Of a stretch of DNA of 64,000 nucleotides, positions 1,792 to 55,683 are shown one piece after another; position 1 is the first letter of the stretch; each line of letters opens with the position of its first letter. A model generated the notes under the pieces. That model was not told where the DNA came from. It did no database searches and worked only from the letters and a program-made list of their open reading frames with translations. The DNA is from an uncultured Chloroflexia bacterium (GTDB lineage: Bacteria > Chloroflexota > Limnocylindria > Limnocylindrales > CSP1-4), in NCBI GenBank assembly GCA_963748625.1, contig CAVVJT010000006.1, positions 44,603 through 108,602 on the forward strand, read 5' to 3'. The translations under genes and the position numbers were made by a program.

Positions 1792-3150
1792 GTGGACGAC
1801 ACCGCGACCGGCGCGATCCCCCTGACCGGCGACGCCACGCCGGAGGTCGACCCGGAGGCGGGGGCCCGTCCCACCGCGCTGTTGCCGATGACGCAGCTGA
1901 TGCGGATCTCGGCCTACTGGCTGGGCCTCACCGCCATCGATGCCGCGGTCGGGTTGTTCATCACCAATCGTGTCGAGTTCGACGGCCTGGTGCCCAGGGA
2001 CGACGTCGGCAAGTCGCTGTTCATGATCGGCATCGGCGCCGCGATCGTGGGAATCATCATCCAGCCCACCGTCGGCTACATCAGCGACTACACCGTTTCC
2101 AGGTGGGGTCGGCGCAAGCCGTACATCGTCTTCGGGTCCCTGCTGGACGTGGTGTTCCTGATCGGGATCGCCATGGGGAACTCGGTCCTCATGCTCGCGG
2201 CCTTCATGCTGCTGCTCGCCGTCAGCACCAACATCGCGCGCGGTCCATTCCAGGGCTACATCCCGGACCTCGTCGCGGAGCCGCAGGTCGGCATGGCGAG
2301 CGGGATGGTGGGCCTCATGCAGGTGGTCGGGAACGTCACCGGGTTCCTCCTCGTATCGCTGTCCGTCACGCTCGGCGTCATGGAGCTCTCGCTCGTGGCG
2401 GTTGCGATCGTCGAGCTCGTGACCATGGCCAGCGTGGTCCTCAAGGTCGGAAAGGGCATGCCGCCCAAGCCGCGCCACGGCAAGTCCTGGGCACGCATCG
2501 CACGCGAGGCCTGGGCGACCGACATCCTCCGGGAGCGGTCCTACATCTGGTTGCTGGTGTCCCGGCTCCTGTTCCTGGTCGCCGGCTCGCTCCTCGTCAA
2601 CTTCGTGGTCATCTACCTCGGGCGCGCCTTCTTCATGTCCAAGGAGGAGGCGAACTCGATGTACGTCGTCATCCTGATCGTCGTCATCGCCGCCAACGTG
2701 GTGGCGATCCTGCCCGCCTCCCGCCTGTCCGACCGGATCGGGCGCAAGCCGCTGATCTTCGCAGCGTGCGCTGGCGGTGCCGCGGGTGCGGGGATCATCG
2801 CCCTGACACCGTCCATCCCGATCGCGATGGTCGGCGCCGCGCTGTTCGGCGCCGCGAACGGCAGCTTCCTGGCCGTCGACTGGGCGCTGATGACCGACAT
2901 CATCCCGCGAGCGTCGGCCGGCCGCTACATGGGCATGAGCAACGTGGCCACCGGTTCGGCCGGGCCTCTCTCCGTCGCCATCGGCGGGGTCGTGCTGGAC
3001 CTCGTGACCTCGGCCGGCAACGAGCCCCTCAGCCCAAGGGTGGTGTTCATTCTCGCCGTCGCGTTCTTCGCGAGCGCAGCGGTCACCCTTCGCCCCGTCG
3101 TCGAGCCGCGCCGCGACCGCCACCCACGGGCGGAGGCCGCAGCCGCCTGA
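1792..3150 (+). CDS. MFS transporter (GPH/BT1-like)
   Basis: 452 aa with about 12 hydrophobic segments. Loop motif GYISDYTVSRWGRRKPYIVFGS. GGGAGGA lies 6 nt upstream of the GTG start. Confidence 0.8.
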   Translation: MDDTATGAIPLTGDATPEVDPEAGARPTALLPMTQLMRISAYWLGLTAIDAAVGLFITNRVEFDGLVPRDDVGKSLFMIGIGAAIVGIIIQPTVGYISDYTVSRWGRRKPYIVFGSLLDVVFLIGIAMGNSVLMLAAFMLLLAVSTNIARGPFQGYIPDLVAEPQVGMASGMVGLMQVVGNVTGFLLVSLSVTLGVMELSLVAVAIVELVTMASVVLKVGKGMPPKPRHGKSWARIAREAWATDILRERSYIWLLVSRLLFLVAGSLLVNFVVIYLGRAFFMSKEEANSMYVVILIVVIAANVVAILPASRLSDRIGRKPLIFAACAGGAAGAGIIALTPSIPIAMVGAALFGAANGSFLAVDWALMTDIIPRASAGRYMGMSNVATGSAGPLSVAIGGVVLDLVTSAGNEPLSPRVVFILAVAFFASAAVTLRPVVEPRRDRHPRAEAAAA

Positions 3151-3154
3151 CCGG

Positions 3155-4153
3155 TCAGTCGCCGATCTCAGCCACGGCCGCGGCGCCTCCTCTCGACGCC
3201 GGGTCGTGCCGGCCAGCGTCGAAGCCGAGGTATGCGCGCAGCCACGCTGCCGATCGAGCACGCCCGATGCGGACGGTCGCCCGGGGCTCCGTGCGGAACG
3301 CGTGACCCCACCGGACCGCCCGGTCGCGCTGGATCCGCAACGCGGCCACCCACGCGGACGCGCTCAGGAAGGCGAAGGGGTGGTGCAGCCGCCACCACCA
3401 TGGCACGGCCGACCAGATGAACACGAGGTAGTCCGCCCGGAAGGGTCGCTCCCCGAAGCCGAACAGGACCTGGAGCTGGACGATCGTCATCGGCAGCATC
3501 ACGAGGGAGAGCAGCCCGGACAGGGCCAGGAACACCAGCCCCCATGAGCGCGCCCGCGGCGGCAGCACGAACCACAGGGGCGCCGGGACCCACTTCATCC
3601 AGGTCGCCAGGCCCCAGATCAGGCCGCCGACCCTGGGGCCCGTGAACTGGGCGCCGAACAGCGCGAGCGCCAGCAGCAGATTGATGTTCCCCGTGTCGAG
3701 GTTGGCCGCCATCGGGAACCAGATCAGCCCGACGAGGATGGCGGTCGGCAGCGGCCGCCGCGTGTAGGCCCAGCGGATGGACCACAGCAGCAGCAGGATC
3801 TGGACCCCGCGCCACGTGAACCAGGCCACCTCCCACGGCAGTAGCGCCCACGGGACGAACAGCGGGAGCATCCAGGGCGAGTAGACGTAGGGCAGGAACG
3901 GTCCAAGTGGGTGGTACGGGTCGCCACCCTCCAGCCAGATCCGCACCGCGGCCCAGTAGGCGCGGGCATCGGCGCCCGCGGTCTCGCCGCGGGCCGTCAT
4001 GCCGGCCAGGGCGAGCGCGAAGACGACAATGAGGATGCCCATCGCGACGATGCGCCGGGGTTCGCGGATCCGGGTCGCCTCCTGGTGGAGGGCACGCCGG
4101 ATCACGCCCGCGCGTCGGGCCGGCCGTCGGTGGAGCGTCGCCTGGGGGTCCAT
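3155..4153 (-). CDS. Polytopic membrane protein, GT-C type glycosyltransferase-like (DUF2029/GT87-like)
   Basis: Only the C-terminal 332 aa of track ORF 3155..4948 look coding. Starts MDPQATLHRRP...MGILIVVFALALAG, Trp/Pro-rich TM segments, PYVYSPWMLPLFVPWALLPW. The remainder of the ORF is antisense to cphB. Family assignment is tentative. Confidence 0.5.
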   Translation of the reverse strand: MDPQATLHRRPARRAGVIRRALHQEATRIREPRRIVAMGILIVVFALALAGMTARGETAGADARAYWAAVRIWLEGGDPYHPLGPFLPYVYSPWMLPLFVPWALLPWEVAWFTWRGVQILLLLWSIRWAYTRRPLPTAILVGLIWFPMAANLDTGNINLLLALALFGAQFTGPRVGGLIWGLATWMKWVPAPLWFVLPPRARSWGLVFLALSGLLSLVMLPMTIVQLQVLFGFGERPFRADYLVFIWSAVPWWWRLHHPFAFLSASAWVAALRIQRDRAVRWGHAFRTEPRATVRIGRARSAAWLRAYLGFDAGRHDPASRGGAAAVAEIGD

Positions 4154-4172
4154 CGACCTGCATTCTCGCGCG

Positions 4173-4201
4173 TTCAGGCCCGGTTGGGGCGCTGCTAGAC
4201 T
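4173..4201 (+). promoter_or_regulatory. Candidate promoter of cphB (TTCAGG-17 nt-TAGACT), giving a leaderless or very short-leader mRNA
   Basis: The TAGACT hexamer ends 9 nt before the cphB ATG (4211). No SD lies in between. A -35-like TTCAGG sits 17 nt upstream. Confidence 0.35.
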
Positions 4202-4210
4202 CCCGGGACC

Positions 4211-5044
4211 ATGCCGCACGGGACAGTCATCGTCATCGGCGGGGCCGAGGACAAGGTCCGCGATCGGGTCATCCTCGGCCAATTCGTCGCGCTCGCGGGC
4301 GGGCCCGAGGCGAGGATCGCCGTGATCGCAACGGCCAGCTCCTTCGGCATGGAGGCGGGCGACCGGTACCGGTCCGTGTTCACCGAGCTGGGTGCTGCGA
4401 ACGTGGCGCCGCTCAACGCCGTGAGCCGCGCGCAGGCGAACGACGAGCACGCGGCGCGAATCATCGGCGACTCCACCGGCATCTTCATGACCGGCGGCAA
4501 CCAGCTCCGGCTCTCGTCGATGCTGGGCGGGACGCGCCTCGCCGACGCGATCATGGCCCGCTTCATGGCCGGTGCCGTGGTCGCAGGCACCTCCGCCGGG
4601 GCAAGCGCCATCTCGTCGCACATGATCGCGTTCGGGGCGTCGGGCGCCACGCCCAAGCACCGGATGGCCCAGATCGCCGCGGGTCTCGGGTTGCTCCCGG
4701 GCGTCATCGTGGACCAGCACTTCCAGCAGCGGAACCGGCTGGGGCGGCTGCTGTCGCTGATCGCCCAGAACCCGTCGCTGCTGGGCCTCGGCGTGGACGA
4801 GGACACGGCCGGCGTCGTGGGCCCGGACCAGGTGATGGAGGTCATCGGGCGCGGGTCCATCACCGTGGTGGACGGCGCGGCGTCCGAGACCGACGCCTGG
4901 GAGATCCGCGGCCACCGGCCCCTCATGATCAGCGGGGTGGTGCTGCACAGCCTGCCGGCGGGCTACCGCTTCGACATTCGTCGGCGGACGCGGGTCTCGG
5001 CGCCGGACCTGCAGGTCATCGAGGGCGAGATCGCCTCGAGCTGA
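4211..5044 (+). CDS. cphB: Cyanophycinase (peptidase S51)
   Basis: 277 aa. VIVIGGAEDK..., GIFMTGGNQLRL, nucleophile motif VVAGTSAGASA, VIVDQHFQQRNRLGRLL. Directly upstream of cphA. Confidence 0.9.
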   Translation: MPHGTVIVIGGAEDKVRDRVILGQFVALAGGPEARIAVIATASSFGMEAGDRYRSVFTELGAANVAPLNAVSRAQANDEHAARIIGDSTGIFMTGGNQLRLSSMLGGTRLADAIMARFMAGAVVAGTSAGASAISSHMIAFGASGATPKHRMAQIAAGLGLLPGVIVDQHFQQRNRLGRLLSLIAQNPSLLGLGVDEDTAGVVGPDQVMEVIGRGSITVVDGAASETDAWEIRGHRPLMISGVVLHSLPAGYRFDIRRRTRVSAPDLQVIEGEIASS

Positions 5045-5147
5045 CGCGCGTGCTCAGCCTGGCGGCGACGTTGGCTCGGGGGAGGCTCGACCGAGCGCGA
5101 CGCCCAGCGATTACACTCCGGTTCCCCACGCACGCGAGGAGGGTCCA

Positions 5148-8117
5148 GTGGCGCAGGCGGATCCCGCTTCCCCGAAGCGGCCGAGGAAGACCGCGGCTCC
5201 GGCCGCCGACACGACCGCGGACGGGGGCGCAGCCGCGGCTCCGGCCGCCGCCACCACGCCGGACGCCGGCGCCACGCCGGAGGCGGACCCGGCCACGCCG
5301 CGGCGGAGGGCCTCGGACGCGATCCCGGGCGGCCTGCGTCCCGAGCCCACCCTGCGCATCCTCGAGACCCGCGTCCTGCGCGGCGCCAACTACTGGGCCA
5401 GGGAGCCCGTGATCCGCCAGGTCGTGGATCTGGGCGTGCTCGAGGAGTTCCCGAGCAACACGATCCCTGGTTTCGTCGACGCCCTCGTCGGGTTGCTGCC
5501 AACCCTGGAGGAGCACGCCTGCTCCCTGGGCCGGCGAGGCGGGTTCATCACGCGCCTCCGTGATGGGACCTGGGCGGGCCACGTGGCCGAGCACATCGCC
5601 CTGGAGTTCCAGAACCTCGCCGGCACGGACGTCCGCCACGGCAAGACCCGCGGCACCGGCGAGCATGGTCGCTACAACGTGATCTTCGAGTACCGCGAGG
5701 AGCAGGTCGGCATCGAGGCCGGCCGCAAGGCCGTCGGGCTCGTCAACCACCTCGTGGCGCCCCACGACCCGGCCTTCGACTTCGATCTCATGGCGGAGCT
5801 CGAGAGCCTGATCCTCATGGCGGAGCGGCTCGCCTTCGGGCCCTCCACCCAGGCGCTCATCGACGAGGCCGCGGGCCGCGACATCCCGTACATGCGCCTC
5901 GACCGCTACTCGCTCGTCCAGTTTGGCCAGGGTGTCCACCAGCAGCGAATCCGCGCCACGATGACCAGCCGCACGAGCGGCATCGCGGTGGACATCGCGT
6001 CGGACAAGAAGCTGACCAACCGCCTCCTCGACTCGGCAGGGCTCCCGGTGCCGCGCTCGGAGATGGTGGAGACCGAGGACGAGGCCGTCGCCGCGGCCCG
6101 CCGCCTGGGTTATCCATGCGTCATCAAGCCGCTCGACGGCAACCACGGCAGGGGCGTCGCGCTGGACCTGCTGAACGAGGCCGCCGTCCGCGCCGCCTGG
6201 CCCGAGACGCTGCGCCAGAGCCGCGGCGGCGACGTGATCGTGGAGTCGTACATCACCGGCCGCGACTATCGCTGCCTCGTGATCGGCGGCAAACTCGCGG
6301 CGGTCGCCGAGCGTGTCCCGGCCAGCGTCACCGGCGACGGCGAGCGGACGATCCGCGAGCTGGTCGAGGTCACCAACGCCGACCCGCGCCGGGGCCTCGG
6401 GCACGAGAAGGTCCTCACCCGTATCAGGCTCGATGCCAACGCCGAGGCGGTCCTCGCGGGCCAGGGCTTCGCCCCCGACGACGTGCCGCCCGCCGGCGCC
6501 TTCGTCAAGCTCGCCCTCACGGGCAACATGTCCACCGGCGGCACGTCCATCGACCGCACCCTCGAGGCCCACCCCGACAACGTGGAGATCGCCGAGACGG
6601 CGGCCCGCGTCGTCGGCCTCGACATCGCCGGCATCGACTTCATCTGCCCGGACATCGAGGAGCCGGTCCGCGAGACCGGCGGCGGCATCGTCGAGGTCAA
6701 CGCGGCCCCCGGCTTCCGGATGCACACGCATCCAACCGAGGGTGAGCCCCAGTACGTCGCAAAGCCGGTCATCGATCTCCTGTTCCCGCCCGGCACTCCG
6801 GCCCGCATCCCCATCCTCGCCGTCACCGGGACCAACGGCAAGACGACGACCGTGCGGATGACCGCCCACGTCCTCAAGCTGATGGGCAAGCGCGTGGGCA
6901 TGACGTCCACCGACGGCATCGTCATCGACGGCCGGCTGATGAAGCGCGGCGACATGAGCGGGCCGAAATCGGCACAGATGGTCCTCCAGAACCCGACGGT
7001 GGACACGGCGGTGTTCGAGGTGGCCCGCGGCGGCATCCTTCGCGAGGGCCTGGGCTACGACCGCAACGACGTCGCTGTGGTCACCAACGTCACCGGCGAT
7101 CACCTGGGGATCGGCGGCATCGACACGCTCGGCCAGCTGGCCAACGTCAAGGGCGTGGTCGTCGAGGCCGTGCCGCGGGCGGGGACCGCGGTCCTCAACG
7201 CCGACGACCATCTCGTCTACCGGATGGGACGCCACTGCAGCGGACGCGTAGTGCTGTTCTCGATGTCGAAGGCGAAGGGGGAGGAGGGCTTCGATCGCGT
7301 CGACGGGCACGCCGCGCGTGGCAACGCCGCCTTCTGTCTCGAGGACACGCCCCAGGGCGAGCTCATCGTGCTGCGCCACGGCCCGCGCAAGATGCCGGTC
7401 CTCTACACCCACCTCATTCCCGCCACGTTCGGCGGGCGGGCGCGGATGAACGTCGCCAATGCGCTCGCCGCCGCTGCCGCCGCGTGGTCGATGGGCGCCC
7501 ACATCCACGACATCCGCCAGGGCCTGAGGACCTTCTCGACGTCCTTCTTCCAGGCGCCGGGCCGCCTCAACCTGGTGGAGGTCGCGGGGACGCGCGTGGT
7601 CATCGACTACTGCCACAACGTGGACGGCATGCGCCAGCTGGCGGACTTCGTCAACCGGATGATGGTGGAGCCGCAGACGCGGGCGGGCGTGCTGGGAGCC
7701 TCGGCCGCACCGCCGCGAACCGGGCGAGCCATCGGCGTCATCGGGATCCCGGGCGACCGCCGCGACCAGGACCAGCGCGAATACGGCGCCCTGGCCGCCA
7801 CCGCGTTCGACGAGCTCGTCATCCGCGAGGACCGCAACCTGCGCGGGCGGCAACCCGGCGAGTCGGCGTCCAACGTCGCCGCGGGGATCCGTGCCGCCCG
7901 CGGCGAGGGCGGTGGCCGGGCCGTGCGGATCGACAAGATCCTTGACGAGGCGTCCGCCGTGCGCGCGGCCCTGCGTCGCTCGGCCCCGGGTGACCTCGTG
8001 GTGGTCTGCGCCGACGATGCAGTGGACGTGTACCGGCAGGCGATGGCACTCGCCGGGCGCAACCAGGGCGGCACCGCCTTCGCCGACCCGGGCGAGCTGG
8101 AGGCTCCGCTGGGATGA
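5148..8117 (+). CDS. cphA: Cyanophycin synthetase (N domain + ATP-grasp G domain + Mur-ligase M domain)
   Basis: 989 aa. N-domain LRILETRVLRGANYWAREPVI. ATP-grasp segment YPCVIKPLDGNHGRGV...IVEVNAAPGFRMH. M-domain P-loop VTGTNGKTT, NVTGDHLG, PGRLNL. GAGGAGGG SD before the GTG at 5148. About 68 aa of Ala/Pro/Thr-rich N-terminal extension. Confidence 0.95.
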   Translation: MAQADPASPKRPRKTAAPAADTTADGGAAAAPAAATTPDAGATPEADPATPRRRASDAIPGGLRPEPTLRILETRVLRGANYWAREPVIRQVVDLGVLEEFPSNTIPGFVDALVGLLPTLEEHACSLGRRGGFITRLRDGTWAGHVAEHIALEFQNLAGTDVRHGKTRGTGEHGRYNVIFEYREEQVGIEAGRKAVGLVNHLVAPHDPAFDFDLMAELESLILMAERLAFGPSTQALIDEAAGRDIPYMRLDRYSLVQFGQGVHQQRIRATMTSRTSGIAVDIASDKKLTNRLLDSAGLPVPRSEMVETEDEAVAAARRLGYPCVIKPLDGNHGRGVALDLLNEAAVRAAWPETLRQSRGGDVIVESYITGRDYRCLVIGGKLAAVAERVPASVTGDGERTIRELVEVTNADPRRGLGHEKVLTRIRLDANAEAVLAGQGFAPDDVPPAGAFVKLALTGNMSTGGTSIDRTLEAHPDNVEIAETAARVVGLDIAGIDFICPDIEEPVRETGGGIVEVNAAPGFRMHTHPTEGEPQYVAKPVIDLLFPPGTPARIPILAVTGTNGKTTTVRMTAHVLKLMGKRVGMTSTDGIVIDGRLMKRGDMSGPKSAQMVLQNPTVDTAVFEVARGGILREGLGYDRNDVAVVTNVTGDHLGIGGIDTLGQLANVKGVVVEAVPRAGTAVLNADDHLVYRMGRHCSGRVVLFSMSKAKGEEGFDRVDGHAARGNAAFCLEDTPQGELIVLRHGPRKMPVLYTHLIPATFGGRARMNVANALAAAAAAWSMGAHIHDIRQGLRTFSTSFFQAPGRLNLVEVAGTRVVIDYCHNVDGMRQLADFVNRMMVEPQTRAGVLGASAAPPRTGRAIGVIGIPGDRRDQDQREYGALAATAFDELVIREDRNLRGRQPGESASNVAAGIRAARGEGGGRAVRIDKILDEASAVRAALRRSAPGDLVVVCADDAVDVYRQAMALAGRNQGGTAFADPGELEAPLG

Positions 8118-44568: not shown

Positions 44569-44630
44569 CGGAGGGGGCAACGCCGCCATCGGGCGGCAGG
44601 GGCGACAGCCCGGAGAGGGAGGCACCTGAC

Positions 44631-48198: not shown

Positions 48199-48936
48199 TC
48201 AGGCGGCCGGCGTCTCCTCCAGGGTCCCGTCGAGGATCCGGCCGTCGACCATGTGCACGGTCCGCCGCGTGCGCGCCGCGAGCTCGTGGTCGTGGGTGAC
48301 CATGACGATCGTCCGCCCTTCGGCCACGAGTGTCTCGAACAGCTCGAACACCTCCTCGGCCGTGACCTCGTCCAGGTTCCCGGTGGGCTCGTCCGCCACG
48401 ATGATCGGCGGATCGTTGGCGAGCGACCGCGCGATCGCCGCGCGCTGCTGCTGGCCGCCTGACGTGGACGCCGGGAGCTTGCGCGCCTGGTCGTCCAGCC
48501 CGACGAGCTCGAGCAGGTGCATCGCCCGCTCGTAGCGCTCCTTCGTGGACCACAGGCCCGCGAAGTCCATCGGCAGCATCACGTTCTCGACCACCGTGAG
48601 CGTGGGCAGCAGCTGGAAGAACTGGAAGATGACCCCGCACGTCCGGCCGCGCCACTGCGCCATGCGACTCTCGGACAGGTTGGCGAGGTTCGTCCCGCCG
48701 ACGACCAGCGAGCCGGCGGTCGGCCGGTCGATGCCCGTGATCATGTTCATCAGCGTGGACTTGCCCGAGCCGGAGCGGCCGACCACGGCGATGAACTCGC
48801 CGGCGTCCACCTGGAGCGAGACCTCCTTGAGCGCGCGGAACGGTCCGGCGTCGGTCACGTAGTCCTTGACGACGTCCCGCAGGTCGATCAGGTGGCCGTG
48901 CGCGAGGTCGCGGTCGGCGAAGGGTGCGCGGATCAC
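48199..48936 (-). CDS. ABC transporter ATP-binding protein (MacB/LolD/FtsE-like), with no adjacent permease gene
   Basis: From ORF 48199..49380; in-frame GTG ([10 protein letters not shown]). [17 protein letters not shown]-like [25 protein letters not shown]. The upstream part of the track ORF is antisense to the tRNA. Confidence 0.85.
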
Positions 48937-48999
48937 GCGCGAACGATACCGGGGAACGCGCCGGCCGTCCGCACGGCGCCCGCTGGTATGCTCGCCCGC

Positions 49000-49085
49000 G
49001 GCGAGGTGGCCGAGTGGTCTATGGCAGCGCTCTTGAAAAGCGCCGGGCGCAAGTCCCGTGGGTTCGAATCCCACCCTCGCCGCCA
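49000..49085 (+). tRNA. tRNA-Ser (anticodon TGA)
   Basis: Acceptor GGCGAGG/CCTCGCC. D-arm GCC-GAGTGGTCTAT-GGC. Anticodon stem GCGCT/AGCGC with loop CT-TGA-AA. Long variable arm. T-arm GTGGG-TTCGAAT-CCCAC. Discriminator G and an encoded CCA. Confidence 0.9.
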
Positions 49086-49149
49086 GGATTGGCAGCGCCA
49101 AGGGCGTGACACCGGTCGCGGCGGCACGACCGAGGAGGAAGCCTGAGCC

Positions 49150-49885
49150 ATGGACCCGATGATCGCCCTGGCCGCCGTTGCCGTGGGCTATCCTGCTGGG
49201 CTCCATCTCGTTCGCGCGCCTCGTCGCCCGGCGGGTCGATCGCAGCGTGGACGTGACGTACATCGTCACCGAGGTTGGCGACGGGGTGACCTTCACCAGC
49301 GACGCGGTGAGCGCCACGTCGGTGCGCATGAAGCTGGGCAAGCGATACGGGCTTCTCGTGGCGCTCCTGGATATGGCCAAGGTCGCGATCCCGGTGCTCG
49401 TGCTGCGCCTGCTGTACCCGGGCGAGCCCTACCTGTACCTCGCCGCCGCGGCGGGCGTCGCCGGGCACAACTGGCCCGTCTATCACCGCTTCAAGGGCGG
49501 CCGGGGCGAGTCCGCCATCATGGGCGCCCTGCTCGTCATCGACCCGATCGGGCTGGTCCTCATGCTCACCCTTGGGATGGTCATCGGGTTTCTTTCCGGC
49601 AACATCCTCGTGCTGGAGTGGACCGGGTTCATCCTGATGGTGCCCTGGCTGTGGCTGACGACGGGCGATCCGTGGGCCGTGGCCTTCATGGTGTCCGTCC
49701 TGGCGATGTGGACGGTCGCCATGCTGCCCGAGCTGCGCCAGTACGCGGCGATGATCAAGCTGTCCGACGCGCCGACAAACGAGCAGGTGGTGGCGGAGTA
49801 CGGTATGAGCGCCAGGCTGGGCCGGGCCATGGACAACTACTCGATCCCGGCGCTGGTGAAGCGGTATCGCTCGACGCCGGGCTAG
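49150..49885 (+). CDS. plsY: Glycerol-3-phosphate acyltransferase PlsY, with an apparent single-base frame break at about 49192
   Basis: ORF 49178..49885 carries [14 protein letters not shown] and [17 protein letters not shown]. The ATG at 49150, preceded by GGAGGA, encodes [14 protein letters not shown] in another frame, which supplies the missing half of the first TM segment. Confidence 0.8.
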
Positions 49886-50148
49886 GGCTGGGGGCCACCC
49901 ATGGCAATCGGCGTGCGCTGGCGGAAGGTCCGGGGCGTCCTGGGCCAGTACCGCGCACGCACCGCGCTCGTCGTCGGGCACGAGCATCTCCCGGACGGTG
50001 GCGCGCATCGGCGCGTATGGTGAGAGTCGCCAGGGCGGGATCGTGTACGGGGTGGTGGTGGTCCCGGCCGGCAACGTGCCCGATGGAGTGCGCTGGAACA
50101 TGACGACCACGGTCGCGATCAAGGTCGGCGGATGAGGCTGCGCAGGTC

Positions 50149-50877
50149 ATGGCCGGCCCGGCGGCGCTCGCACTTGCCGGGGTGATTGCCGCGGCCTGCA
50201 TCGGCCCACCGCCGTCGCCCTCTCCGTCGCCAACTCCCTCGCCCTCGCCCTCGCCGTCGCCTTCGCCTACCGCCCCGCTCGCGACCGCGGCGCCCACGTC
50301 GGCCACGACGCCGGCGGCGCCGCCGTCCGGCACCGTGCTCGTGGATGTTCCCGCGGCCGGCGCCCGCCTGCCGGTGCCGGGGGGCTGGGAGCAGGCGGAC
50401 GCGGATGCCCTTGAGGATCCGGATCGGCGTGCCGACATCGTGGCGCGCTATCCAGGCGCTGATGCCCTGCTGGCGGCCGCCGCCGAGATGGGCGACCGGG
50501 CCGTCCCAGCCTTCGTGGCGTTTGATCCTTCGACTGCCGGCACCGGCGCCGGGCTGGCCACCAACATCGCCGTGCTCGTCGCCCAGCCTTCGGTCAGTGG
50601 GCCGCTGCTCGACTTCGTGGCGGGGTTCATCGGCGACGGGTTCAAGGACGCGTTCGGGGCAGAGGAGACAGCCCGCGAACGGGTGGACACGCCGCTCGGC
50701 GAGGCCGTGCGCCTCGAGTACGCGCTGCCGCCGCGAGACGGGGTGGCGCTGACGGCGGTCCAGTACATCGTCGGTGCGCCGGCGGGCACGGTGCTGGTGT
50801 CCATCCTGGGGCCGGCCGACGTGGTTGCGTCACTGGACCCGGACGCGCTCGTGGCAGCGATGGCGCCGATGCCGTAG
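50149..50877 (+). CDS. Hypothetical lipoprotein with a (Pro-Ser)n linker
   Basis: 242 aa. MAGPAALALAGVIAAAC lipobox, then PPPSPSPSPTPSPSPSPSPSP, then a globular domain of unknown family. Confidence 0.65.
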   Translation: MAGPAALALAGVIAAACIGPPPSPSPSPTPSPSPSPSPSPTAPLATAAPTSATTPAAPPSGTVLVDVPAAGARLPVPGGWEQADADALEDPDRRADIVARYPGADALLAAAAEMGDRAVPAFVAFDPSTAGTGAGLATNIAVLVAQPSVSGPLLDFVAGFIGDGFKDAFGAEETARERVDTPLGEAVRLEYALPPRDGVALTAVQYIVGAPAGTVLVSILGPADVVASLDPDALVAAMAPMP

Positions 50878-50956
50878 CCGCAGTTCACCCAATCCGACGG
50901 CACCGGTGTGCCGAATAGTGGAAGTAATCCCAACTTCCGAGGAGATCCCGAGCCCA

Positions 50957-51808
50957 ATGACAGCCCAGACCGGCGCGACAGTCGCGCAACCCATCCACAC
51001 GGAGACTGCCGCCGCGATCCCAGAGGGGAACAGCCGTTCGCTGCGCCGCTGGAACCGGTTCCTGGTGTTCGCGCACGGCGGCCAGTTCCTGCTCATGGTC
51101 CTGATCTCGAAGACGACGACCCTGTTCGAGCCGGTCGTGCCCACGGTCAAGCCGATCATCACAGACGGCAAGTTCACCGGTGTCGAGCCGACCGAGGTCG
51201 TGCTGTTCTCCTTCCCGCTCGCCTACCTGATCGCCAGCTTCTTCCTGATGAGCGCCATCGCGCACTTCGTCGCCGGCTGGCCGCTGCGCGCGCGCTATGA
51301 GGCGTGGCTCGCGCGAGGCATGAACCCGCTCCGCTGGATCGAGTACGCATTCTCGTCCTCGGTCATGATCGTGGCCATCGCCTACATCAGCTACATCACC
51401 GAGTTCACGGCGCTCGTGGCGATCGCCGGAGTGAACGCGGCGATGAACCTGTTCGGCTGGAGCATGGAAGCGGCCAACGAGGGACGCGAGAAGCCGGACT
51501 GGAAGCACTTCATCTTCGGCTGCATCGCGGGGATCGTCCCCTGGATCGCGATCTTCTCCGTCATCTGGGCCTACAACATCCAGGAGGGCCTGCCGGCGGA
51601 GTACTCGATCCCCTCGTTCGTGTACATCATCATCGGCAGCCTGTTCCTCGCTTTCAACGTCTTCGCCATCACGATGGTCCTCCAGTACAAGAAGGTCGGC
51701 CGCTGGAAGAACTACCTCGCCGGTGAGAAGACCTACATGGTCCTGAGCCTGGTCGCCAAGTCGCTCCTCGCCTGGCAGGTCTGGTCCGGGACCCTTCGCC
51801 CCAACTGA
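50957..51808 (+). CDS. Heliorhodopsin
   Basis: Last 283 aa of ORF 50774..51808 (MTAQTGATV...). Near-collinear with my recollection of heliorhodopsin 48C12: RWIEYAFSSSVMIV (counterion Glu), GVNAAMNLFGW, FGCIAGIVPWI, FVYIIIGSLFLAFN, YMVLSLVAKSLLAWQVWSGTL (Schiff-base Lys). Seven hydrophobic segments. Confidence 0.9.
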   Translation: MTAQTGATVAQPIHTETAAAIPEGNSRSLRRWNRFLVFAHGGQFLLMVLISKTTTLFEPVVPTVKPIITDGKFTGVEPTEVVLFSFPLAYLIASFFLMSAIAHFVAGWPLRARYEAWLARGMNPLRWIEYAFSSSVMIVAIAYISYITEFTALVAIAGVNAAMNLFGWSMEAANEGREKPDWKHFIFGCIAGIVPWIAIFSVIWAYNIQEGLPAEYSIPSFVYIIIGSLFLAFNVFAITMVLQYKKVGRWKNYLAGEKTYMVLSLVAKSLLAWQVWSGTLRPN

Positions 51809-51823
51809 TCCCGCTGTCGAGAC

Positions 51824-51864
51824 GGGGCGGCACCGCTGCGGCGGTGCCGCCCCTCTCGCGTTTC
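51824..51864 (+). terminator. Strong intrinsic terminator after the heliorhodopsin gene
   Basis: GGGGCGGCACCGC-tgcg-GCGGTGCCGCCCC, a perfect 13-bp stem starting 16 nt after the stop, followed by tctcgcgTTTc. Confidence 0.7.
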
Positions 51865-51984
51865 AACCTCACGCGCACATCGGGACTGGGCCACCCACCA
51901 TGTGGACCTTGACGGACGTGCGCCCCCTGCGATCATCACGACAAGCCCCGAATGGGGCCGGGCCGGAGCCGTGGGGAGTGCCCG

Positions 51985-53310
51985 ATGAACGTCGTTGCCG
52001 TCGTCCTTGCCGGTGGTGCGGGCGAGCGCCTTTCCGTCCTCTCCGATCACCGCGCCAAGCCGGCCGTCCCGTTCGGCGGCAAGTACCGGATCATCGACTT
52101 CGCCCTGTCCAACTGCGTGAACTCCGGGATCGACCGGGTGCTCGTCCTGACCCAGTACAGCCCCCGCTCGCTGATCGACCACATCGGCCGTGGGCGCCCC
52201 TGGGATCTCGACCGCTCCTTCGGCGGCGGCATCCGTGTCCTGCAGCCGTATCTCTCCCGGACCGACAAGGTGGGCTGGTACTCCGGCACGGCCGATGCCG
52301 TCCGACGGAACGCGACGCCGATCGCCGAGGAGAACCCGGACCTCGTGCTCGTCCTGGCGGGGGACCACATCTACAAGATGGACTACCGGCCGTTCATCCA
52401 GACGCACCTGGAGAAGGGGGCAGACCTCACGGTGGCGGTCCTCACGGTGCCGCCGGACGAGGCGTCCCGGATGGGGATCTGCCTGACGGACGGCGATGAC
52501 CGGATCATCGACTGGGAGGAGAAGCCGGCCGAGCCCCGGGGCGATCTGGCCTCGATGGGGGTCTACGTCTTCTCGCCCGATGCCCTCCGGCGCTGGCTGA
52601 CGCCAACCCGGCACGACTTCGGCAAGGACGTCGTCCCGGCGATGATCAAGGCGGGCCGGCGGGTCTTCGCCCACCGCTTCGAGGGCTACTGGCGCGATGT
52701 CGGGACGGTCGAGGCATTCTGGAAGGCGAACCTGGACCTGGTCGGTCTCGTCCCACCCCTCGACCTCTTCGATCGCAGCTGGCTGATCCACACGCGATCC
52801 GAGGAACGCTCGCCCGCGAAGTCCGGCCCCGACGCCGTGTTCCGTCACTCGCTGGCCAGCCACGGCTGCATCATCAACGGGTCGGTCGTGAACAGCCTCC
52901 TCTCGCCCGGCGTCAAGGTCTACGACGGCGCAGTCGTCCGCGACTCGGTGATCATGCTCGACGCCGAGATCGGGGCTGGGGCGGTCGTTGACGGGTCGAT
53001 CATCGACAAGCACGTCACGATTGGCGCGGGTGCGATCGTGGGCTACGGCGAGGACCGCTGGATCGTCAACGCCGAGGAGCCCGACAGGCTCACGACCGGG
53101 ATCACGGTGATCGGCAAGCGCGCGTTCATCCCTCCCGGGACACGACTCGGCCGAAACGTCCGGGTCGACACGGACGTCGCCTCGGGGGACTTCACGTCCC
53201 TCGATGTTCCTTCGGGCGGAACGGTGCATCACGGGGACGGCGGCCCGGCAGACGACGGCGCGCCGCGCCCGGGCGCCCGAGCCATGTCCAGGGCGCGCAG
53301 GTCACGCTGA
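51985..53310 (+). CDS. glgC: Glucose-1-phosphate adenylyltransferase
   Basis: From ORF 51952..53310; start at MNVVAVVLAGGAGERL (GGGGAG SD). KPAVPFGGKYRIIDFALSNC, YSGTADAV, LAGDHIYKMDY, FEGYWRDVGT, left-handed beta-helix C-terminus. Confidence 0.9.
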   Translation: MNVVAVVLAGGAGERLSVLSDHRAKPAVPFGGKYRIIDFALSNCVNSGIDRVLVLTQYSPRSLIDHIGRGRPWDLDRSFGGGIRVLQPYLSRTDKVGWYSGTADAVRRNATPIAEENPDLVLVLAGDHIYKMDYRPFIQTHLEKGADLTVAVLTVPPDEASRMGICLTDGDDRIIDWEEKPAEPRGDLASMGVYVFSPDALRRWLTPTRHDFGKDVVPAMIKAGRRVFAHRFEGYWRDVGTVEAFWKANLDLVGLVPPLDLFDRSWLIHTRSEERSPAKSGPDAVFRHSLASHGCIINGSVVNSLLSPGVKVYDGAVVRDSVIMLDAEIGAGAVVDGSIIDKHVTIGAGAIVGYGEDRWIVNAEEPDRLTTGITVIGKRAFIPPGTRLGRNVRVDTDVASGDFTSLDVPSGGTVHHGDGGPADDGAPRPGARAMSRARRSR

Positions 53311-53432
53311 CCCCGGGTCGCGGCGTCTCCGTCGCGGGCCTCGGCAGCCCGACGGGCTCGCGACGCGCCGCCCGCTTAGCTGCGGGTTCAACGGCGCCGA
53401 CTTGCGACTGTCCGTCGCAGATAGGGCGTTCC

Positions 53433-53669
53433 GGGACGGTGAATTGGGACTGACAGTCCCCGCGAGGACCATCGCGAGCCAGGAATCCCGTCCGAGTGTG
53501 GACTGCCAGTCCCCTCGTGGCCCATCGCGACGCCGCAGCCATGACTGCCAGTCCCGAACGGGCACCTGGATAGCGGCAACCGGTCCCGGGACCGGGGCAC
53601 AACCCGGCCACCGAGCACAACCGGGAGCTCACGATGGCCCAGGCACGGCTGTCGAGCCCAGGCACGGCT
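53433..53669. repeat. Cluster of GGGAC/GTCCC-based palindromes and short direct repeats in the long glgC-trpE intergenic region
   Basis: GGGACTG-a-CAGTCCC (53446-53460), GGACTG-c-CAGTCC (53500-53512), TGACTG-c-CAGTCC (53542-53554) and the perfect 16-bp palindrome CCGGTCCCGGGACCGG (53580-53595). CCATCGCGA follows the first two palindromes. CCCAGGCACGGCT occurs twice (53638, 53657). Confidence 0.7.
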
Positions 53670-54072
53670 TGACGGCCGGAGCGGGCCGCCCCTATCCTCC
53701 GCCCACATCACGAATACGGGCCTTGATCGGGACGAGTACCCGTCGGGCGCCATCACAGAGACCCGGCGGCTGGTGCGAGCCGGGATGGCGGCGGCGGCGA
53801 ATGGACCCGGGAGCCCCCGGACCGAACGCGGGGCGGCGACCATGGACGCGTCAGCGGACGAGGACGCAGCGGACGACCAGTAGGCTCCGGCGCAGAGCGC
53901 CAGCGATACAGGGCAGCGCCGATCGATCCCACCGGGCGGGACCCGCCGCTCAGGATCCGTCGGTCACGAGTGCGGCACAGCGCCGAACGTGGGTGGCACC
54001 GCGGAAGGACCAACGACCTTTCGTCCCGGAAGAGACGATTACGGTCGTTTTCGATTCTCAAGGACCACCACC

Positions 54073-55683
54073 ATGACCGACCCGCTCAGCCTCACCGAGA
54101 CGAAGCACCTGGCCTCCACCGCGGACACCATCCTCCTGCGCGCGACGCGCACGGCGGACCTCGAGACGCCGATCGGCGCGTTCCTCCGGCTGGATGACGG
54201 CACCACGCCCGCCTACCTGCTGGAGTCCGTCGAGGGCGGCGAGCGCCTCGGCCGTTACAGCTTCCTGGGCATCGGCCCCCGGCGCCTGCTCGAGGTGGGC
54301 GACGGCGTTGCCCGAACGACCTCCCGCCCCGTGGGCGTGACCGACTACGCGCCCGACCTCCCGGTGGCCACCGCGGAGACCCCGGACCCCCTCGCGGCGC
54401 TGCGCGCGTTCGTCCCGCGCCGCCGCGTCGTCCCGGTCGAGGGGATGCCACGCTTCACGGGCGGCGCCGTCGGCGCCCTCTCGTACGACGCCATCGCCGC
54501 GTTCGAGCCGTCCGTCCCGCTGCCAGACCGCGACCCGGTCGGTGTCCCGCTCGCCAGCTTCATCGAGACCGATCTCGTCATCGTCTTCGACCACCTGACG
54601 CACCAGCTCTCCGCCATCGCGTCGCTCCACACCGAGGCCCCGGACCTCGAGGGCCGCTACCGGATCGCCGAGCGGGCCATCTTCGAGGCACTCGAGCGCA
54701 CGGCCCGCCCGTCAGCCGCGGAGATGAGCGCGGGCTTCACGCGCCCGGCCGATGGTGGCGGCGCAGCGGACCTCGGCCAGGTCGAGACCAGCCTCGGACG
54801 AGACCAGTACATCCGGGCCGTCGAGAAGGCCAAGGACGCGATCGCCGCCGGCGAGGCGATCCAGGTCGTGCTCGCGCGGCGACAATCGTTCGACCTCCCG
54901 GCCGCCGTGGACGGCGCTCCCATCGACGGCATCGGCCTTTACCGCGCCCTGCGGCGGGTGAATCCGTCGCCCTACCTGTTCTTCACGCGAACCCCGGGCT
55001 TCGAGGTCGTGGGGGCCAGCCCCGAGCTGCTCGTCCAGGTCGTGGGCGACCGGATGTCCACGCACCCGATCGCCGGCACGCGGCCCCGCGGCACGACCCC
55101 CGCCGACGACGACCGCCTCGCCGACGAGCTCCGCCGCGACCCCAAGGAGCGTGCCGAGCACGTGATGCTCGTGGACCTCGGCCGCAACGACCTGGGGCGC
55201 GTCGCCCGGCCTGGGACGGTGAGCACCAGCCAGTACATGGAGGTGGAGCGTTACAGCCACGTCCTCCACCTGGTGAGCCACGTGGAGGCACGCCTCCGCC
55301 CGGAGCTTGACGCCCTCGATGCGCTGCGCTCGGTGTTCCCGGCCGGCACCCTCACTGGCGCCCCGAAGATCCGCGCCATGCAGCTGATCGCCGCGGCCGA
55401 GGGCGAGCGCCGCGGCCTGTATGGTGGCGCCGTGGGCTATCTCGGCTACGACGGCAACCTCGACACCGCGATCACGATCCGGAGCGCGGTGCTCAAGGAT
55501 GGCCAGGCCCACGTCCACACCGGGGCGGGCATCGTGGCGAAGAGCATCCCGGAGAGCGAGTTCGAGGAGACCGAGCACAAGGCCGCGGCGCTTCGCCGGG
55601 CGATCGAGCTCGCCGCCGCGCCCGCCGTCCCGCGTTCGTCCGCCGCCGGCGCCCCCGAACCGCCGGAGGCCGGCCCCCGATGA
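54073..55683 (+). CDS. trpE: Anthranilate synthase component I
   Basis: From ORF 53989..55683; start at MTDPLSL (AAGGA SD). LLESVEGGERLGRYSF, GTRPRG, LVDLGRNDLGRV, GTLTGAPKIRAM, YGGAVGY. Confidence 0.95.
   Translation: MTDPLSLTETKHLASTADTILLRATRTADLETPIGAFLRLDDGTTPAYLLESVEGGERLGRYSFLGIGPRRLLEVGDGVARTTSRPVGVTDYAPDLPVATAETPDPLAALRAFVPRRRVVPVEGMPRFTGGAVGALSYDAIAAFEPSVPLPDRDPVGVPLASFIETDLVIVFDHLTHQLSAIASLHTEAPDLEGRYRIAERAIFEALERTARPSAAEMSAGFTRPADGGGAADLGQVETSLGRDQYIRAVEKAKDAIAAGEAIQVVLARRQSFDLPAAVDGAPIDGIGLYRALRRVNPSPYLFFTRTPGFEVVGASPELLVQVVGDRMSTHPIAGTRPRGTTPADDDRLADELRRDPKERAEHVMLVDLGRNDLGRVARPGTVSTSQYMEVERYSHVLHLVSHVEARLRPELDALDALRSVFPAGTLTGAPKIRAMQLIAAAEGERRGLYGGAVGYLGYDGNLDTAITIRSAVLKDGQAHVHTGAGIVAKSIPESEFEETEHKAAALRRAIELAAAPAVPRSSAAGAPEPPEAGPR

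Follow-up and report, generated by a model that had tools for sequence, protein, structure and literature searches.

The 64,000-nucleotide stretch of DNA analysed here (positions 44,603–108,602 of contig CAVVJT010000006.1 from the uncultured Chloroflexia assembly GCA_963748625.1, and hereafter referred to as the window) carries a heliorhodopsin (HeR) gene whose ATG lies 79 nt after the end of an open reading frame (ORF) for a lipoprotein. We consider it likely that this HeR is a vertically inherited and self-contained gene lying beside a decayed exporter cluster, of which the lipoprotein gene is the leftover last member, and that the function of the HeR is best judged by analogy with its family. 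The lipoprotein had been proposed, from the sequence alone, to be a light-signal partner of the HeR on the extracytoplasmic side. This is not supported as stated, as the conserved partner of the lipoprotein is an exporter (in approximately 20 loci), while lipoprotein genes without HeR are found in approximately ten loci and HeR genes without the lipoprotein in approximately 22 of 27. The lipoprotein is unlikely to serve the HeR as a dedicated partner in light signalling, and we find a historical adjacency to a decayed exporter operon more likely than a partnership between the two proteins. The physiological roles of HeRs are, to our knowledge, known in few cases only, and hypotheses about them come mainly from gene neighbourhood, which in the present case misleads if only one genome is considered.

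The loci compared with the window (referred to by L or P numbers) were taken from the contexts of homologues, from HeR-bearing species-representative genomes and from a metagenome scan made with an alignment of the lipoprotein, and were mapped by tblastn.

Identity and composition of the heliorhodopsin gene

The encoded protein had been recognised as a heliorhodopsin with the counterion Glu and the Schiff-base Lys, and this was borne out by full-length matches to Pfam PF18761 (E = 1.4e-79; 267.3 bits against a cut-off of 26.7, covering profile positions 1–242 of 242) and to the NCBIfam equivalog NF038020 'heliorhodopsin HeR' (272.6 bits against a cut-off of 100), as well as by end-to-end phmmer alignments with the solved HeRs 6is6, 6su3, 9ljj and 6uh3 (E about 1e-52 to 1e-54). 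E129 (RWIEYAFSSS) aligns with the counterion Glu of transmembrane helix (TM) 3 in RWFEYSISAS, K268 (SLVAKSLLAWQ) with the Schiff-base Lys of TM7 in LSLVAKSALAWQ of 6is6 and 9ljj, and H40 (FAHGGQF) and H103 (SAIAHFV) with the two conserved His residues found in TM1 and TM2 of TaHeR; entry 7clj, the counterion mutant, has Asp at the position aligned to E129. The counterion, the Schiff-base Lys and both His are shared with TaHeR (6is6) and HeR-48C12 (6su3), where the full-length alignment has an E-value of ~1e-53, and the long TM1–TM2 loop of these proteins is also present in the window HeR. It differs from them in an N-terminus longer by ~22 residues, in a loop before TM6/7 that is slightly extended, and in its host, a high-GC bacterium of the Limnocylindrales-type Chloroflexota. 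We place the start of the gene at ATG 50957 because the GAGGAG preceding it is conserved and the indels found 5' of the gene among relatives are not multiples of three. The ratio of non-synonymous to synonymous substitution rates (dN/dS) of HeR among relatives is 0.11–0.38, and on these comparisons we regard the heliorhodopsin as genuine and as an ordinary member of a known family which standard annotation would name correctly, its host belonging to a Chloroflexota lineage of soil and freshwater.

The inverted topology (N-terminus inside), retinal binding and long photocycle of this HeR are inferred by homology. Going by the characterised members of the family, the protein would bind all-trans retinal at K268 with E129 as the counterion, would not be an ion pump, and might act as a slow-photocycle sensor which modulates another protein by direct contact. 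A Pfam scan of the ~50 ORFs in the window found no carotenoid or retinal synthesis families (phytoene synthase or desaturase, lycopene cyclase, Blh or polyprenyl synthase), as the sequence-only reading had observed, and retinal would have to be supplied by genes in another part of the genome or by uptake. This locus does not reveal the partner of the HeR, for which the lipoprotein is a minority candidate at best.

The HeR gene had also been described as using more A/T-containing codons than its neighbours, and here the lower GC content stood but the codon choice did not. GC is 0.62–0.66 along the gene (0.636 for the whole gene) against 0.68–0.76 in the surroundings and 0.72 in the window overall. 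By codon position 1/2/3 it is 0.53/0.44/0.937, and the third-position value (GC3) is as in the neighbouring plsY, glgC, RDD and trpE genes (0.90–0.95). Since the deficit lies in positions 1 and 2, the low GC reflects the amino-acid make-up of a membrane protein rather than codon choice, and a foreign origin of the gene argued from its low GC was rejected because GC3 is equal to or above that of the neighbours.

The metagenome-assembled genome MFD00032.bin.2.129 holds two HeR loci of this clade (L032 and L039), so that the lineage includes HeR paralogues. In several MFD assemblies (L004/L033, L011 and L034), matches to HeR, the lipoprotein or glgC are split, and these look like assembly frameshift errors rather than pseudogenes.

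The heliorhodopsin gene as a self-contained unit

Comparison of the loci presents the HeR gene as a self-contained unit of ~0.97 kb, comprising an upstream element, a Shine-Dalgarno sequence, the ORF and a putative hairpin terminator. Where L012 has a 974-bp segment (5316–6289) containing the upstream element, HeR and hairpin, L002 has only 32 nt between homologous flanks. The upstream element has the motif CC(C)A(A)TC(C/T)G-N17/18-CGAA, the half-sites of which form an imperfect inverted repeat, and is located ~65 nt before the HeR ATG. It was found before HeR in 19 of the 46 HeR loci against a background rate of 0.011 per 260 nt, including five loci which lack the lipoprotein and have another upstream gene (L013, L014, L025, L027 and L036). 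We considered the element as a sigma-70 promoter and rejected this, as the hexamers do not fit and the spacer gave no promoter in a simple scan. An Rfam E-value scan of 48900–54100 found no known RNA motif in the HeR spacer or in the gap between plsY and the lipoprotein gene, and returned only the tRNA and T-box. The element in the window (50888–50915) offers a concrete way to look for the regulator that controls HeR expression.

The claim that the gene is followed by a terminator with a perfect 13-bp stem held up well. The hairpin at 51819–51857 has this stem plus four outer pairs, and none of 200 shuffled sequences was as stable. Its position is kept in relatives, with an identical sequence in L005 and L011, and with a different sequence in L010 and L012 that still pairs through compensatory changes. 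A simple terminator scan missed the hairpin because the U tract that follows (GUUUC) is weak. Downstream, a promoter-like TTGACG-16-GATCAT site is conserved in the loci which bear glgC, and because HeR has its own terminator and glgC its own conserved promoter-like site, we agree with the earlier view that the two genes are not co-transcribed. It had likewise been noted that no terminator is visible between the lipoprotein and HeR genes, and we found no significant hairpin in this spacer (z = -0.35 and -0.68), so that read-through from upstream is also possible.

The lipoprotein and its exporter cluster

Gene order and profile matches identify the lipoprotein as the conserved terminal component of a MacB-type (type VII ATP-binding cassette, ABC) exporter cluster. 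Its gene closes a plsY–(ABC ATPase)–FtsX permease–membrane-fusion protein (MFP) adaptor–lipoprotein cluster in approximately 20 loci. The exporter gene order and its 4-nt overlaps are found in L001, L002, L004, L009–L012, L043, L047, L049–L051, L053, L055–L058 and L060, and plsY precedes the FtsX–MFP–lipoprotein genes in L001, L002, L004, L009–L012, L050 and L055. Our assignment rests on this last-gene position, on the overlap in relatives of the lipoprotein ATG with the adaptor stop codon (ATGA), and on matches of the L010 proteins to FtsX/MacB/LolCE models (permease) and HlyD/MacA/DevB models (adaptor). The ABC ATPase is 97–99% identical in relatives with a dN/dS of 0.03–0.07 and is far more constrained than the lipoprotein or HeR; this stronger constraint, and its retention beside a deleted permease gene, suggest that the ATPase also serves another permease elsewhere.

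The lipoprotein belongs to no named family, as first thought. No Pfam or NCBIfam match was obtained for it, and among ten distant relatives no family reached the Pfam cut-off (PsbP, DUF1795, LpqN etc.). None of 73 homologues is named, and all come from Chloroflexota or Ca. Limnocylindrales assemblies; the family is small, with 16 representatives at E ≤ 1e-30 and 114 at E ≤ 1e-3 among 1.84 billion. The lipobox Cys17 is invariant in all 36 aligned sequences, where it is preceded by [LVI]xA[AG], and the same alignment shows a conserved domain of ~185 aa after a Pro/Ser/Thr linker. An AlphaFold2 model of the protein has a mean predicted confidence (pLDDT) of 86.7, exceeding 90 in the domain, and Foldseek matched it to CyanoP (2xb3; E = 3.9e-5, TM-score 0.69), Apa, PsbP, DcrB and Mog1. 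We are confident that the modelled domain has a PsbP/Mog1/DcrB-like fold, with PsbP/CyanoP, Mog1, DcrB and mycobacterial Apa all matched at a Foldseek probability of 1.0 and target-normalised TM-scores of 0.55–0.70. Several proteins with this fold are, like the window lipoprotein, lipoproteins or extracytoplasmic accessory proteins, but identity to them is only 9–18% and the window lipoprotein differs further in matching no Pfam or NCBIfam model and in the tiny size of its family.

Exporter deletions in the window and in relatives

In a blastn comparison with the intact cluster of L010, homology extends to window position 49976 (L010 2866) and resumes at 49975 (L010 6031), and therefore 3,164 bp (L010 2867–6030) are missing in the window. 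This 3.16-kb deletion took the FtsX permease gene and most of the adaptor gene, and the 263-nt gap between plsY and the lipoprotein gene is the scar, in which remnants of both can be recognised; a scan of the window ORFs found no FtsX gene elsewhere in the window. A further deletion of 1 nt lies five codons after the ancestral ATG at 50132 (CTGCGCA-GGTC in the window, compared with CTGCGCGCGGTC or similar in ten relatives), and as a result the lipoprotein ORF restarts at the internal ATG 50149 without the basic MRLR n-region. Homologues begin with MRLR, MSLR or MTLR, whereas the window ORF begins with MAGPAAL and has no basic residue in the n-region. This 1-nt deletion may be genuine or may stem from an error of assembly.

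The exporter genes have also been lost in other loci. L005, L006, L045 and L046 lack the equivalent of L010 2837–5008 and 5230–6066, and L034 lacks 2343–6081. L044 and the P0077 contig have lost FtsX together with the N-terminal portion of the adaptor, of which a remnant of 180–190 aa is left. The window, L005 and L044 types cannot be derived from one another, and we therefore count at least three independent deletion events. The adaptor gene is still present in the nearest relatives of the deleted variants (L043 in the case of the window, L047 in that of L005), and the dN/dS of the lipoprotein between exporter-deleted variants (0.11–0.29) is in the same range as between intact ones. In L007, a 38-aa ORF that overlaps the start of the lipoprotein gene shows a faint likeness to the adaptor C-terminus which is at most suggestive.

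Adjacency of the lipoprotein and heliorhodopsin genes

The sequence-only reading had named adjacency unique to this genome as the outcome that would count against it, and this is not what we found. HeR is directly 3' of the lipoprotein gene in 15 loci with at least four architectures (the window, L004/L033, L005/L006, L007/L008, L010–L012, L034, L044, L046, L048, L049, L051, L052 and L061), with further cases in L063 and the P0077 contig. In L004, L010, L011, L012, L049 and L051, HeR is directly 3' and on the same strand of an intact plsY–FtsX–MFP–lipoprotein cluster. Approximately ten loci have the lipoprotein gene without HeR (L001, L002, L009, L050 and L054–L060), and among these HeR-less loci a strong hairpin follows the lipoprotein gene only in L001 (z = -2.8) and not in L002, L009, L050, L054, L055 or L057. 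Conversely, approximately 22 of 27 related HeR loci from species-representative genomes have no lipoprotein gene within 7 kb (L013–L031 and L035–L039). These include L013 (serS–RDD–tRNA–HeR–glgC–trpE) and L014, in which HeR occupies the same chromosomal position without plsY and the lipoprotein gene. Clustering of ORFs from the HeR loci without the lipoprotein revealed no conserved alternative neighbour, and only small clade-specific clusters were obtained. A 138-aa cNMP-binding protein adjoins HeR in two otherwise different contexts (L004 8324–8740 on the reverse strand and L007 7781–8197 on the forward strand).

Neighbour-joining trees of HeR and of the lipoprotein contain the same two clades, which fits one old juxtaposition followed by vertical descent and, later, by several losses of either gene. 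The adjacency is real and fairly old and is not obligatory, and the concordance of the trees together with the GC3 of 0.937 indicates that the HeR has been vertically inherited.

Competing explanations

Some of our observations weigh against a purely historical adjacency. The two genes are on the same strand, 64–105 nt apart and with no convincing terminator between them, across 15 loci; the pair has been kept after at least three independent exporter deletions; and the lipoprotein is under purifying selection in the deletion variants (dN/dS 0.11–0.29). Such a pattern of retention is what would be expected if the lipoprotein–HeR pair had a function of its own. The PsbP-like lipoprotein might then be an extracytoplasmic partner which touches the outer loops or C-terminus of the HeR and relays or modulates the light signal, and this would suit the persistence of the adjacency down to identities of 54% for the lipoprotein and 74% for HeR, the survival of the pair in the wholly different neighbourhood of L007/L008, and its survival of FtsX–MFP loss in the window, L005, L044/P0077 and L034 types. 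We nonetheless judge such a partnership to be improbable, given the many loci in which either gene occurs without the other (L013 and L014 being at the same position as the window HeR), the translational coupling of the lipoprotein gene to the adaptor gene rather than to HeR, and the loss in the window of the basic n-region of the signal peptide. Moreover, those partners of HeRs which have been shown (glutamine synthetase, photolyase and OmrDE) were analysed via the intracellular loops (PMC11109279). There is a similarly slim chance that HeR and the lipoprotein form a two-gene light-responsive module of the outer face, first attached to the exporter and later independent of it. Such a module would explain how the pair survived at least three exporter deletions and one relocation and, if true, would make the lipoprotein the first HeR partner on the extracytoplasmic side; that the exporter was lost repeatedly while both lipoprotein and HeR were kept is a cheap and testable lead to a possible partner of this kind.

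A related suggestion, which we regard as unlikely, is that HeR was recruited for the light modulation of the MacB-type exporter, with the lipoprotein a mere subunit and the arrangement in the window a relic. There is a precedent in OcHeR–OmrDE, where the HeR gene is downstream of ABC-exporter genes and transport is enhanced by light (Cho et al. 2024, Nat Commun, PMC11109279), and HeR has the same position and strand relative to the ABC-exporter genes in our intact relatives. However, OmrDE is a heterodimeric type IV multidrug exporter, whereas the cluster described here consists of an FtsX/MacB permease, a membrane-fusion adaptor and a lipoprotein, the spacer is 64–105 nt, and the permease and adaptor genes have been deleted in the window. 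HeR is also kept and constrained where the exporter genes have been deleted, and is found in many unrelated contexts with its own upstream element. It is quite unlikely, in our view, that the lipoprotein gene is becoming a pseudogene in this genome and persists merely through the recency of the deletion. The 1-nt deletion has removed the ancestral start and the MRLR n-region, and the nearest relative, L043, with a lipoprotein 96% identical, keeps the adaptor gene, which would make the 3.16-kb deletion a recent one. Against this, the reading frame shows no further damage from an in-frame ATG onwards, at which P0003 and P0081 also have Met, full-length lipoprotein genes with low dN/dS persist in other deletion variants, and an assembly error might account for the one-base difference. 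A recent horizontal acquisition of HeR, for which the GC of 0.636 in a window of ~0.72 and the clean 974-bp indel might be cited, is hardly credible: GC3 is at or above that of the neighbours with the deficit in codon positions 1 and 2, the HeR tree mirrors that of the lipoprotein, and its close relatives all belong to this one Chloroflexota lineage.

Relation to published heliorhodopsins

HeRs from Ellin6529 Chloroflexota have already been described as cluster C18 (Bulzu et al. 2021, bioRxiv 10.1101/2021.02.01.429150). Judging from the records of relatives, the window HeR comes from the same host lineage (Ellin6529), and its clade may correspond to C18. No words for lipoprotein occur in the text of Bulzu et al. 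(bioRxiv 10.1101/2021.02.01.429150), none of the papers in the collection searched links heliorhodopsin with Limnocylindr*, and among those listed for heliorhodopsin and lipoprotein none is about such a pairing as judged by title.

Features of the locus

The genes in this part of the window are arranged in the order lysS, serS, a gene for an RDD membrane protein, an ABC ATPase gene on the reverse strand, tRNA-Ser, plsY, the 263-nt gap, the 242-aa lipoprotein ORF and HeR, followed by the hairpin, glgC (51952–53310), a T-box-like leader and the trp operon (see Table 1 for the positions of the features).

Table 1. Positions, strands and supporting evidence for features of the heliorhodopsin locus in the window.
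Feature	Position	Strand	Evidence or remarks
ABC ATPase, MacB/LolD/FtsE type, divergent, intact	48202..48927	-	NCBIfam LolD 220, FtsE 214 and MacB 207 bits
tRNA-Ser (TGA)	49000..49085	+	ARAGORN; Rfam tRNA 58.6 bits; 96% identical in L013
plsY (glycerol-3-phosphate acyltransferase), first gene of the ancestral cluster	49178..49885	+	Pfam PF02660, E = 2.2e-21
FtsX permease 5' stub, 25 codons then out of frame	49901..49975	+	MAIGVRWRKVRG...TALVV matches the L010 FtsX start
MFP adaptor 3' remnant, last 52 codons and stop	49977..50135	+	tblastn, 83% identity to the MFP C-terminus
Ancestral lipoprotein start, ATGA overlap with the MFP stop	50132..50148	+	Disrupted in the window by the 1-nt deletion
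Lipoprotein, 242 aa	50149..50877	+	Short signal peptide, lipobox Cys17, Pro/Ser/Thr linker and predicted 185-aa PsbP/Mog1/DcrB-like domain
Conserved upstream element CCCAATCCG-N-CGAA	50888..50915	+	Accompanies the HeR gene
HeR Shine-Dalgarno sequence GAGGAG	50939..50944	+	Kept in two alignments of relatives
Heliorhodopsin, 283 aa	50957..51808	+	Pfam, NCBIfam and alignment to solved structures
Terminator-like hairpin, 13+4 bp stem and 4-nt loop	51819..51857	+	Folding free energy (dG) -43 kcal/mol, z = -4.6
glgC promoter-like site TTGACG-16-GATCAT with TG	51909..51936	+	Conserved in L005, L011 and L013, which also have glgC

Matches to the T-box leader were found at 53720–53814 and 53968–54028 before trpE (55 bits, E = 2e-10, split and below the gathering score). 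These probably form a Trp-responsive leader, which would explain the long spacer between glgC and trpE, and the listed start of the trpE ORF at 53989 is probably too far upstream. Elsewhere in the window, 4211–8114 contains a gene pair for an S51 peptidase (a possible cyanophycinase) and cyanophycin synthetase which, together with glgC, points to storage-polymer metabolism in this organism.

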